Positions 15,001 to 27,000 of a stretch of 64,000 bases of DNA are shown piece by piece. Origin of the DNA: a plasmid. Position 1 is the first letter of the stretch. Every line of letters begins with the position of its first letter. The stretch lies in sequence record NZ_CP025492.2. One strand, given 5' to 3'. Made by a program: the position numbers.

Positions 15001-18000
15001 GCGTTCGGAATATTTTTGTTCTTTAATGGATAATTGAATAATTCTATCGGTTCTGAAGTGACGGAAGTCCTGCCTTAGTTCACACCAACCCACCATGAGA
15101 TGCACTTCATCAAAAAAGCCGAGCGCGATAGGCCAGAGTATTCGTGTCGAATGATTGTTTTGGAGATCTTGATATTCTAATTCGATTTTTCGTTCTAAAC
15201 GTATCGCTTTGCGAATGAGAATAAGATCACTATCTTTACTTTCGGCACATTTTCCTGGGGGAACTAAGAGTCCTGAAGTTTCTAGTTGGTGTTTTAATTC
15301 AGTAGGAAGGACTGCTGAAATTTTTGCAAGCACATTTTGAGCTGCGATTTTAAGTTGAGTATCCGCTCGTTGTGCAACCCAACTTGACCCTAGCACCATT
15401 GCCTCAATTTCATCATCTGAAAACATCAAAGGAGGCAACATAAAACCAGATTTAAGCACATAACCAACACCGGGCTCACCTTCAATGGGCGCGCCTAAGG
15501 ATTGTAAGGTTATTATATCTCGGTACAGAGTGCGTAGGCTTACGCCTAATTCTTCTGAAAGTTTTTTGCCACTCACGGGTAATCGGTGACGTCGTAATAA
15601 TTGAATTAAATCAAACAAACGTTCAGTTCGGGACAAGATACTGCTGCCAAATTATGCCAGTAGTATATCATGAATACTTATAGAACTAATAAGCTGCTTA
15701 TTATGATTATTTCTAATAGTAACTTAATTTTTGGGACTAATGGATGCCTTCAAGAAGTGCTTTAAAACCACCTGCTATCGGACTAGGTTGATTGGGATAA
15801 TAGGCCTTGTAGGCCTGGCGATCCACACTGAGCATAAACTGGTTAGATGCGAGTATATTCCAAAATAGCCGGATCTGTTTGGCAACAATGAATGCATTTA
15901 ACAGTTGTTTTTCTGTCGCTAATCCTAGCCAATTTTCGAAGCAAGCATCTTGAAATTTCAGGTAGGTTGAATCACCTTCTGTTACTCCATGGTGAGTAAT
16001 CGATTGTTCTAAACAGGTCTGTAACGAAAAAAATGGATGAAGGATAGCGGTCTCGCCCCAATCAACAAAAGTCATTCTTTTAGTAATTGGATCAAGAAGA
16101 ACATTTTTATCATGAAAATCGTGATAACCAATGGTTTCAGGAATCTTAAAGCTTGCTAATAATTTGCACTGTGCTGAAAATTTCGGGCTTAGGGCGTGTA
16201 GTGTTTGTAATTCTTTATCGGTGAGTCCCTCTGCTTTTAAAAAAGTAGTTTGCTTTAAGATGTGATCATAAAGAAAGGGTAATTGATTTAATCGCCAATC
16301 GGGTACACCAAGTTTGAGAAACGTAGCGATACACTCTTCAGATCTGCGTTGAATTGTGGCATATTGTTTTATTGCTTGGCATAATAGCTCTGGCTTGAAG
16401 TTGGTTTTAAGCGTTTGACGCAAAGAAATACCCGCATCCCTCATTAGAAAACAATGTAAATCCTCATTAATTTCAATTATATCGGGCACATTGGCATGGA
16501 ATTGGGATGACAATACTCGAATGATTTTGGGCTCATTAGATAGAAAAAAAGATGGTGGTGTTTGTTTTAAATAAAAATTCTCTGTTGATGTTGCAAATCG
16601 GATCACATGAGACCACGGTGTTGACAATACAATTTCTGGCGAGCGCTCTATTGAGTAGCCATTAGAAACCAGGTAATCGGTTCCCCATTTGAAAAGTGGT
16701 AGTAGATTATTCATTTTTGGAAGTTAAAATGCATAAAAAATGACGAGAAAAATATAAGTCTTACTTAACATAAAAAACTTCCCTTTAAATAGTTACCCAG
16801 AGAATATTATACATAAAAAAGCGAGTCTCAATAGAATAGTAAAAGCAGGATAAAATAATGGAACAGCAAGATGATTTACCTATATCCGGGGTATAAACAA
16901 AAGGATAATGGATTAATTCTTAGTTTGCTTATTCAACCCGGCGCCAAATGCAATCAAGTAGTAGGTGCTGTTGGAGGGGAACTCAAGATAAAAATCGCGG
17001 CACCTTCTATTGAAGATAAAGCCAACATGGAATTAGTGCGATACCTGTCTGTCTTATTCAAAGTCCCTAAAAGTCAAATTTAAATAAAGAGAGGCCTTCA
17101 GTCTCGACACAAGATCATTGAAGTCATTGGTTGTGGTGTTGATGCTCTCCAGTGGTGTAAAATTTAAAGAATGATTTTAAATAATGAGCCTAAATGCTGG
17201 ATACAACAATAATTGAGAGCAATTGGCGCTCTCGTGGCTTTAGTTTTGAGCTTTGGGAAGATCCCCCAGGTCAAATTTGGAAGGATTTTAACCATGGGCA
17301 ATAAAACGTTAAAACCTGCTATTGGAGAAGAAGTATTGATTCCAGCAGGAGTAGATCATACGGTTCAAACCAGTTCCACCACAGGGAGCCGTTGGTATTA
17401 TGGTTACAAAGTAAGAAGGTAAGGAAATGACACAAAAGAAAATATCATTAGAAAATGATGCTGTTCTGCAATTCATTGTTGATGAATTAATATCTTTACA
17501 TCATTGCCATACAATTATTTTATATGGCTCGCGCGCACGAGGAGACTTCACAGTAACCAGTGATTATGATGTTGCAGGGATTAGGGAAAAAGGAGATAAG
17601 CAACGAATTGCACGCTTTGATGAAGCACATCAAGTTTATCATGATATTTTTGTTTATCCAGAGAATGCTTTTGATTCAATTTCTGATGAACATTTATGTA
17701 TGTCAGATGGCATCGTTGTTGTTGAAAAAGCTTATTTTGGCACAGAGTTATTAAAAAAACTCTCTGCTTTTTTAATATTGCCTGAGTCCCTCCCTCCTGA
17801 TGAAATTACAGCACGTAGAGTGTGGTATCAAAAAATGCTGGCAAGGGCGTATACTAGAGATTTAGAAGGGAAATATCGCCATATTTGGTCAATCTTCACA
17901 ATTCTAGAGGATTATTTTGTATTCAAAGAATTGCGTTATCAAGGTCCAAAAAAAGCATTCAAGTATTTAGAAACACACGATCCAGAGACTTTATCATTAT

Positions 18001-24000: not shown

Positions 24001-27000
24001 AATGTAGCAGGTAAAATTTGGGATTATGTACTCGATGTTTTAAGTCGAAGAAACGAGCAACCCAATTAATGTACATTATATATACAATTGGGTTTTTTTA
24101 ACTCGGTATAATAACAGATAAGTAAATCTTTATTCGGATGAAACCATTATGAACTTGCACTGGAGTATTCTCATGAAAAAAGACAAAGAACAACATCAGC
24201 CTGTCCTTGAATCCATAACGGCAGATGAACCCAAAACCTCCTCTATAGCATTAGCTTTACAACAATTTAGAAAGGAAGCAGAAAAAAAAGAGGCTGCTGA
24301 GGAAGGTGCAAAAGTACGCTGCGGGACTTGTTTTAAAGAAATCGCACCTAAGCGCCTTTGTTCCGGACATGGCGCAGGTGGTAGCGGAGGTGATAGTGCC
24401 ACCTCTGATAAGAAGACATCTGAGGAAAAAGCGAGTCCTGGTGAAGTTAAATTCCTAACTAAACCTGGCAAAGCAGTTGGGTCTGAAGATGAATTGGTAG
24501 GCGTGTTTGGTTCAGAAGAACTTGATTTAGAGTCTGGTTTTGACCCAGAAATAATTGCGGAATTGATCGCCAAAGGATTATTGCTGGTTGATAGTGATCG
24601 CGTATCAATGACTCTTTCAATTAAATTACAATGTGAACCTAGTAAATTAACTGAAGAACAAAGAGAAGAATTAAAAAAATTCATGGAAGCGATTATAAAA
24701 GAATTCAATGAATTTAAAGAAGAAAATCATCTTTCTGATGATTGCATACAAATCCTTCAAGATGAGGAGGGAAGCATATGTTCTCTTCGCATTACCATGC
24801 CCACATTAGCTTTATACGATGCATTTATTCAACAGCTAGCAAATAATTTAGTGCCCGTACCCAGTCCGAAAGCACAAGAAAGAGATGAGGTAACGAAAGA
24901 GCAAGGCCTTACTGCAAGTCCACTTTCAAGAGAACCAAGACCGTCTAATAAAAATCAACTCTCCAAACAAGAAGCTAATGAGGAGATACATAATACATCT
25001 GAGGATGGGGAACAAGAAATTTTTAACCCATCTCCTTTTAATATGAAGCCATGGTAATAGAAGTAGGTGTTTATTGATTTTTGAAAAGAACTTTAATTTC
25101 AAGGCCCCATTTTATTTCCAATAAGACAATTACGTAATTGGGAAATACCATTTCATGCTTTCTCAAGACTGAGCCCTTAAGTTTCGATATCTACAAGATC
25201 ATTGAGGTCATTGGTTGCGTGTTAAACTGATACAGTGGATAGTTGATTTATAACGGATATTTCTTTTTATGGTTTTCTTATTTATCTGATTGAATGGTGT
25301 AGCTTTTTAGGCTATGATTGAAGCTTAGTTGGCTTCAACATAAAAATCATGTTTGATACTTCAATATTGTTTTCTGAATATCGGCGGCGTGTGCTGGCAC
25401 TTTTATTGCTGCATCCTGATGAGCGTTATCATGTCCGAGAGATTGCGCGGTTAACGAATACCACAGCGGGTACACTTCATCGAGAACTATCCAAACTTGC
25501 TAAATCCAAAGTACTTCTGCGCGAGCAGAGCGGTAATCAAGTTTATTACCAAGCAAATCGAAATTTTCCTATTTATACGGAGCTTTCAAGCATTTTAAAG
25601 AAAACGTCTGGTTTGGTGGATGTGTTGTTTGATTTTTTAACTCCATTAGCTGAAAAAATTGAAGTAGCTTTTGTTTTTGGCTCGGTGGCCAAAGGAACCG
25701 AAAACCTTGGAAGTGATATTGATGTGCTTATTATTGGTGAGGTTGATTTTACAGAAGCAGTTGCAGCTCTTTATGCTGCCCAAGCGAGTTTAGGGAGAGA
25801 AATTAACCCCAAAATATATTCCAGGGAACAATGGAAGTCATCTTTACAAAAACAAGATCTTTTCATTCAGGAGGTTTTAAATAATCCCAAGCTATTTATT
25901 ATGGGAGCTGAACATGACCTTGGATAATTTAATTGGCATCAGCCTGGAAAAAATACCACCTCACCCAGATACCATAAATCGGCTTTTGCATGCTGCTGAA
26001 CGTAATATTGTGGATTCAAAAATTGACTTGGTTAGCGCGGAGAATCGCTTTGATGCTGCCTATAAAGCAATTATGCAAATAGCAAATGCAGCACTTCAAT
26101 CTCATGGATATCGAACCTTGACTTCTAAACCAGGACATCATCAAACGATGATTCAGTTATTGCCTCAGACTTTAGGTATTGATAAAAAAACAGTGATTAT
26201 ATTGGATGCTATGCGTAAACAACGCAATATTGCAGATTATTCTGGCGATATTATTCCTGAGAGTGCAGTAATAACTTGTATTGCTCAAGCAGAAGCATTG
26301 TTAAAGGATTTTAAAAAATGGCTGAGTGTTAATGATGGAAAACAACAGTGATGTAAAGCAACAACTCAATGAATGTCTTGAGGTACTAACAAAGATTTTA
26401 GGCGCAGAGCTTTTGGGAGTTATCTTTATGGTTCTTATCTTATAGGTGGTTTGCAAAAATACAGTGACATTGATTTATTTGTTGTAACAAATCGTACCAC
26501 AACGTCAAAAGAAAAGATGGAGTTGACTAACCATCTACTCCAAATATCAGGCATTTACATGAAAAGTACGAAGCCACCTATAGAAATGACCCTTGTGGAA
26601 AGGGTCGCAATTAATCCTTGGATTTATCCACCCCTTTTTGATTTCCAATATGGCGAATGGCTTCGCTCATCATTTGAAATGGGAAATTTTGAACCATGGT
26701 CTGATCGTGCAATGCCGGATCTTGCGCTGATTATCACGCAGGTCTTATTGAAGAGTCATACATTGATGGGGGAAAGCCCTAAGCAACTATTAGACCCGGT
26801 CCCATATAGCGACTTTATAAACGCGATGCTTCATGATCTTGATAGACTTTCAGCGGAACTTGAACAGGACACTCGAAATGTATTACTAACCTATGCACGG
26901 ATTTGGAGTACATTAGAAACTAATGAGATTCGATCGAAACCTATAGCAGCAGATTGGGTGATTGATCGTCTACCTAAAATGTATCAGCCCGTGATGAACA

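Follow-up and report, generated by a model that had tools for sequence, protein, structure and literature searches.

Two similar sequences flank an 8-kb gene block

The DNA analysed here is a stretch of 64,000 nt from a plasmid (sequence record NZ_CP025492.2; the whole stretch is called the window in the following), in which two similar sequences lie on either side of a gene block of about 8 kb, next to a gene of the DUF167/yggU family. Copy 1 (R1, 17086..17155) and copy 2 (R2, 25166..25253) are both located on the plus strand. Their common core is a 25-mer, ACAAGATCATTGARGTCATTGGTTG, at 17109–17133 and 25193–25217, in which the copies match at 24 of 25 positions. Elsewhere in the 64 kb no third copy of the 25-mer was found when up to three mismatches were allowed, and two or more matches occurred in 0 of 100 shuffled sequences. 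Around the core a looser similarity extends over 17086–17155 and 25166–25238, with 56 identical positions in 76 alignment columns, 9 of which are gap columns. An earlier sequence-only reading had described direct repeats of about 64 nt on the same strand with a near-identical core, the first of them starting at 17091, 8 nt past the stop codon of a DUF167 open reading frame (ORF). This description proved accurate.

Copy 1 is the 3’ end of a DUF167 gene

The plasmid-borne DUF167/yggU gene occupies 16858..17167 on the plus strand, from the ancestral ATG at 16858 to the usual stop codon of the family at 17165–17167. A 2-nt deletion after ancestral codon 10 is common to the whole family of plasmids related to pLPP, the conjugative plasmid of Legionella pneumophila Paris (NC_006365.1), and alignment of the 5’ end places the ATG in use now at 16871. 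The resulting ORF (16871–17083, 70 aa) stops 28 codons short at an in-frame TAA at 17081–17083, as the sequence-only reading had recognized, and the gene is therefore not intact. When the TAA is read through, translation yields …KVPKSQI*IKRGLQSRHKIIEVIGCGVDALQWCKI-stop. This read-through protein matches the Pfam family PF02594 with 76.4 bits (cut-off 30.9) over profile positions 1–75 of 76, and the match spans both the TAA and copy 1, which covers DUF167 codons ~73–95 (KRGLQSRHKIIEVIGCGVDALQW). Since copy 1 is in frame and lies within the PF02594 match of the read-through protein, it constitutes the 3’ coding sequence of the DUF167/yggU gene itself and not intergenic DNA. In a tblastn search residues 1–98 of protein P0001 aligned to window 16871–17164 (96%).

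Intact homologues of 98–104 aa carry a lysine at the position of the in-frame TAA, identifying the lesion as an AAA>TAA change (K71*). Within the protein cluster 360 contigs carry the exact 70-aa allele, while two intact alleles of 98 aa are represented by 838 and 199 contigs; the gene of pLPP (LPP_RS16025) is likewise intact with 98 aa. K71* made the gene a pseudogene in this lineage, and the truncation described in the sequence-only reading is this point nonsense mutation of the plasmid-borne gene; yggU was not cut by the insertion.

A chromosomal type of YggU is present in another Legionella. The gene (L024, 10001–10279) encodes 92 aa, lies near purB and nadB and is 48% identical to the plasmid type. 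A search with this protein gave no protein labelled L. pneumophila among the best 120 matches, and L. pneumophila may be without a chromosomal yggU.

A deletion junction at the right edge of copy 1

On the right side the similarity between copies 1 and 2 ends at the hexamer CAGTGG (17150..17155, plus strand). In a metagenome contig (L018) the order of features is an intact yggU, a His_Phos_1 gene on the minus strand, the sequence …TTTCACTGGTGTAAAATTTAAAG and a cupin gene. Window 12554–17155 corresponds to positions 5667–10300 of this contig and window 17150–17296 to positions 10876–11024. Because of this arrangement the junction in the window is explained by a deletion of 575 bp between CAGTGG and CACTGG. 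The deletion took the ancestral last 5 codons (…IVDL-stop) together with the His_Phos_1 gene, and fused DUF167 to a new tail (CKI-stop) and to the upstream region of the cupin gene. The MW5194 plasmid, which is without yggU, has the same CACTGGTGTAAAAT with ~30 nt of common upstream sequence and confirms the CACTGG state.

The cupin gene itself is a pseudogene in the window (17194..17422, plus strand), with a 50-nt internal deletion and a frameshift in the alignment to L020. The deletion falls between short direct repeats. Intact cupin genes of 92 aa are present in L012 (Cupin_2) and L020.

Copy 2 is a decayed remnant of the same coding sequence

Copy 2 comprises the last ~24 codons of a DUF167 gene with the tail QWIVDL and a TAA at 25251–25253. 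In the yggU frame it reads …YKIIEVIGC and, past a 1-nt deletion, QWIVDL-stop, the same C-terminal end as in the 104-aa homologues from Legionella. Besides this deletion the window copy has a 4-nt insertion and substitutions, and the 5’ part and start codon are absent. The counterpart in pLPP is free of indels and stays in one frame, LKS*HKSVEVIGCSVDALPWGVDL, with one internal stop. Its 24 codons align to YggU residues 81–104 (tblastn E = 9e-7 within the pLPP locus), and it matches copy 1 of pLPP at 60 of 70 positions.

The homology of copy 2 runs past the stop codon into the native downstream DNA of yggU, as found in the chromosome of L. longbeachae (L008), in L018 and L150 and in an L. anisa plasmid. 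In the window this native DNA (25254..25348, plus strand), which matches L. longbeachae and the relic of L. anisa, leads directly into a gene for an MNT-like nucleotidyltransferase (NTase). Left of ~25166 the similarity falls off sharply. A possible extension of the relic by ~54 nt upstream (tblastn 36%, E = 0.19, ~50% nucleotide identity) was treated as unproven. Because copy 2 is collinear with the end of yggU, continues into its native downstream DNA and loses similarity on the left, it is a 5’-truncated gene remnant. Its disabling lesions and missing 5’ part likewise mark it as a dead DUF167 gene fragment. The sequence-only reading had overlooked that DUF167 runs on in frame into copy 1 and that copy 2, too, is a piece of this coding sequence.

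Gene remnants at rearrangement junctions of mosaic plasmids share these properties: they are 5’-truncated, collinear and disabled, run into the downstream DNA of their parent gene and are conserved no better than flanking non-coding DNA. Copy 2 differs from them in nothing essential, except that its 25-nt core in the window is better preserved than the rest.

Comparison with L. longbeachae and other relatives

On the L. longbeachae chromosome an APH gene on the minus strand is followed by an intact 104-aa yggU, 79 nt and MNT-HEPN-AadA genes. Window 14899–17156 corresponds to L008 8011–10301 and window 25171–27199 to L008 10236–12247; the 66 nt at L008 10236–10301 thus correspond to both window copies. 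Compared with this arrangement, in which yggU directly precedes MNT-HEPN-AadA, the 8-kb block is an inserted segment. Of the overall interpretation given in the sequence-only reading the insertion is therefore supported, and the att-like duplication and the regulatory or small RNA family are not, as discussed below.

L. longbeachae has a second copy of the repeat, RB (18852–18930), 8.6 kb downstream of yggU. Its left flank is that of window copy 2, i.e. the DNA after the ATP-grasp and 302-aa genes, and its right flank also agrees with window copy 2 but includes just the first ~100 nt of the MNT gene. RB and window copy 2 have shared derived characters. The same flanks on both sides of copy 2 are found in the window, pLPP, the MW5194 plasmid, L020–L025 and RB of L. 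longbeachae. Because flanks and derived characters are held in common, the join of the DNA downstream of the 302-aa gene to the yggU fragment is best taken as one old event, and this founding join would have been inherited by or transferred into both the window and the L. longbeachae lineage.

The two parts of the block compare differently with L. longbeachae. The left part (17427..21611) consists of genes for an NTase (17427–18083, plus strand), a histidine kinase (18181–19785, plus strand) and an ankyrin protein of the plpp0098 family (19797–21611, minus strand); at the DNA level neither this part nor the cupin gene has a counterpart at the L. longbeachae locus. The right part (21851..25057) contains a response regulator (21851–22543, minus strand), an ATP-grasp protein (22735–24069, plus strand) and a 302-aa protein without Pfam match (24149–25057, plus strand). 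Its counterparts lie 4–9 kb downstream of the L. longbeachae yggU in a different arrangement. The response regulator is 91% identical at the DNA level (blastn, inverted) and the ATP-grasp gene 85% at the DNA and 80% at the protein level, whereas the kinase shows only 35% protein identity to the L. longbeachae kinase. By these comparisons the block is a mosaic and not one unit. The NTase, kinase, ankyrin, response regulator and ATP-grasp domains were assigned with Pfam, and all five gene products that the sequence-only reading had named for the segment were recovered, with the 302-aa protein in addition.

In L. longbeachae the response regulator sits in a regulator-kinase operon; in the window the kinase is split from the regulator by the ankyrin gene. 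The two-component pair of the window appears to be of mixed ancestry.

Downstream of yggU seven different neighbours were found among about ten relatives, including MNT-HEPN-AadA, AadA with a beta-lactamase, HisPhos, RelB-YafQ, Mntp and CHMI. The breakpoints vary as well, lying at the stop codon, at +25, at +50 or inside the tail. A single repeat copy with other downstream genes is present in L013, L016, L018, L149 and L151. In the L. anisa plasmid MNT-HEPN is preceded by a shorter yggU relic, which consists of the last ~13 codons and starts 38 nt before the stop codon.

Origin of the repeat pair

Taken together, we consider it very probable that the repeats are the DUF167 gene’s own 3’ end and the decayed leftover of another DUF167 end, and thus the scar of a plasmid rearrangement. 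The parent of copy 2 would have been a DUF167 gene once located directly upstream of MNT-HEPN-AadA, of which the end was left over together with its own downstream DNA. One old illegitimate join would have brought the DNA downstream of the 302-aa gene onto the inside of a DUF167 gene, so that a complete DUF167 gene would have come to stand on one side of the two-component, ankyrin and ATP-grasp genes and the remnant on the other. Two routes to such a join can be envisaged: a segment could have been duplicated in tandem, with different parts lost afterwards, or two variant plasmids could have recombined. Later the 575-bp deletion at CAGTGG/CACTGG took the original tail of the first gene and the phosphatase gene, and the remnant gained its indels. 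The DUF167 gene was inactivated by K71* in this lineage.

Several points do not sit easily with this reconstruction. The core of copy 2 is preserved at 24 of 25 positions compared to 56 of 76 overall, unlike the prediction of pure neutral decay. Short-patch gene conversion from copy 1 in the window lineage is the simplest guess for this preservation, which could instead result from some constraint. L. longbeachae is itself a two-copy genome, and a truly single-copy ancestor of the exact lineage was not found. Nearly every relative examined differs directly downstream of yggU, which could hint at a preferred recombination site. Finally, the mechanism of the founding join is inferred, and more than one reconstruction fits.

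Islands integrated at the 3’ ends of genes (tRNA, tmRNA or protein-coding) resemble the window in having 3’-end repeats around accessory DNA and an original gene end that is displaced distally. Here direct repeats do bracket an 8-kb block at a gene 3’ end, and the distal copy has the ancestral gene end while the proximal copy has another tail, which is the classic pattern; moreover L. longbeachae keeps an uninterrupted yggU-MNT adjacency and the downstream neighbours of yggU vary among relatives. We nevertheless regard it as unlikely that the copies are an attL/attR scar of a circular element that carried a surrogate yggU 3’ end, integrated at the 3’ end of yggU under duplication of ~65 nt and later lost its integrase. 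Unlike such islands the block has neither an integrase nor fixed breakpoints: genes for an integrase, an excisionase or a transposase are absent from the block and its immediate surroundings in every pLPP-family copy examined, no integrase or recombinase appeared in a Pfam search of all block ORFs or in the Pfam tables of 11 related loci, and the window and six related loci contain no tRNA. The breakpoints differ between relatives, with the L. anisa relic cut elsewhere. The tail of copy 1 is explained by the 575-bp deletion relative to L018 and MW5194 and not by attP sequence, so that the proximal edge arose later, by this deletion. Just 22 of the 25 core positions match in pLPP, and the block is mosaic, given the unequal relatedness of response regulator and kinase to L. 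longbeachae. Nothing specific supports an integrase-mediated origin of the ancient event. A P4-type integrase was noticed in L016; it is part of a different island, which is separated from yggU by ~1.4 kb on the upstream side and by an intervening gene and has no adjoining repeat copy. There is next to no probability that the pair is the target-site duplication of a transposon that carried the 8-kb block. Although direct repeats surround accessory genes and a Tn3-family element lies elsewhere in the window (57274–64000), target duplications of transposons are typically under 15 bp, a duplication of ~70 nt is far too long, and the block contains no transposase and lacks terminal inverted repeats at its ends.

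The preservation of the copy 2 core above its flanks, in the window as well as in RB of L. longbeachae, could be read in favor of a functional intergenic element present in two copies, such as a small RNA, a regulatory site or a member of a REP-like family. This is extremely unlikely, as copy 1 is protein-coding and the core varies in pLPP-type copies. Further copies, as expected for the dispersed family that the sequence-only reading had considered, were not detected: there are two in the 64 kb, and in relatives the repeat occurs only at corresponding positions. The promoter-like site of the MNT gene is located downstream of copy 2, and the L. anisa plasmid has MNT-HEPN without the core. A search of Rfam gave no match in the window at the gathering threshold and, at E ≤ 1 in 16700–25500, one weak unrelated match and none on the repeats. 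Single-sequence folds of both copies on both strands were no better than those of shuffled sequences (z −0.35 to +2.25). A metagenome scan with the 16-mer TTGARGTCATTGGTTG returned 120 loci, all of them chance matches without similarity to the window, the pattern being too short. The diversity of genes downstream of yggU might also point to the DUF167 3’ end and the ~50 nt after it as a preferred site for cassette swaps in Legionella plasmids and islands, with copy 2 as a footprint and the 25-nt core as the recognised sequence. The agent might then be an unrecognised recombinase, or the machinery of natural transformation and recombination. We consider this very unlikely.

Plasmid context and spread among Legionella species

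The first 51,300 nt of the window (1–51300) are collinear with pLPP and its near-identical relatives at 91–93% identity. pLPP is a 131.8-kb conjugative plasmid common in sequence type 1 (ST1) (PMC6744872), and near-identical plasmids of the pLPP type are present in L. hackeliae and in other L. pneumophila strains. Like the window, pLPP carries phosphotransferase, DUF167, NTase, kinase, ankyrin (plpp0098), response regulator, ATP-grasp, hypothetical, MNT, HEPN and AadA genes, arranged in the same order and at ~93% DNA identity, and both repeat copies are present. It differs in that its DUF167 gene is intact and its copy 2 has no indels, whereas the window lineage has K71*, the cupin pseudogene and a more decayed copy 2. 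By this comparison the region is accessory cargo of a conjugative Legionella plasmid of the pLPP family and does not represent a yggU locus of a chromosome. The exact phosphotransferase neighbour of the window is found on contigs that are mostly 50–200 kb long and cluster at ~150 kb, with none above 1 Mb, and the window plasmid is therefore probably a ~150-kb relative of pLPP.

The region at 13–27 kb of the window is found with 94.5–94.7% identity in L. maioricensis, L. steigerwaltii, L. quateirensis and a Legionella metagenome-assembled genome (LEG1), and a shorter contig of L. maceachernii matches at 92–97%. Between the copies of L. maioricensis and L. steigerwaltii the identity is 99.9%. 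The same layout occurs at 93–95% identity in several Legionella species, and this high identity across species indicates horizontal spread among them. The region is also present on a few L. pneumophila chromosomes. A scan of GTDB genomes with the YggU alignment, in which not all Legionella species were covered, gave 7 loci.

On the other side of the DUF167 gene an L. pneumophila assembly (L003, GCA_001467605.1) diverges from the window inside the gene of a WYL regulator, left of window 15423; left of the divergence it carries an integrase fragment and plasmid-like Rep3/ParA/ParB genes. A further assembly (L002) has an insertion sequence on the same side. Both show further mosaicism on this side of the gene.

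The distal part of the window (57274–64000) encodes a transposase of the Tn3 family together with a resolvase, a DUF302 protein and a P-type ATPase for cations. Plasmids of L. longbeachae, L. sainthelensi, Fluoribacter dumoffii, L. geestiana and others contain this part with 100% identity, and it looks like a recently spread metal-transport transposon.

Further features of the block and of the genes downstream of copy 2

Copy 2 and its native downstream DNA are followed on the plus strand by the genes for the MNT-like NTase (25349–25927), a HEPN-like protein of 145 aa (25914–26351) and an AadA-like adenylyltransferase (26451–27155). A promoter scan located a promoter-like site for the MNT gene at 25290–25318, outside and downstream of R2. 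Just after it, also outside R2 and 12 nt upstream of the MNT ATG, lies an inverted repeat, GAAGCTTAGTTGGCTTC (25320–25336), with conserved counterparts in L. longbeachae, in pLPP and in the L. anisa plasmid. This element is a candidate for an autoregulatory operator of the MNT-HEPN pair.

Within the block the ankyrin gene is a member of the plpp0098/lpop0045 family, which is included in a published table (PMC3218107). A promoter-like direct repeat of 51 nt with a TATAAT motif is present at 22660–22710, upstream of the ATP-grasp gene, and at 24071–24121, upstream of the 302-aa gene, the copies being 82% identical. In L012 the ATP-grasp gene is missing, precisely from one copy of this repeat to the other; the repeat is also found in L. 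longbeachae (L008 14410–14501 and 17277–17328). The 51-nt repeat may be a shared operator for the adjacent response regulator.

Significance of the repeat pair

We conclude that the pair is an ordinary gene remnant left by plasmid rearrangement and does not point to a mobile element, att site or RNA of a new kind. Today no activity as a repeat is expected of either copy. For annotation, the truncated yggU should be described as a DUF167 pseudogene by nonsense mutation that extends to 17167, and 25166–25253 as a DUF167 gene fragment. Beyond annotation the pair itself is of little importance. The locus as a whole is a compact record of how the cargo of a pLPP-family plasmid was assembled by joins, deletions and cassette swaps and has spread among Legionella species.

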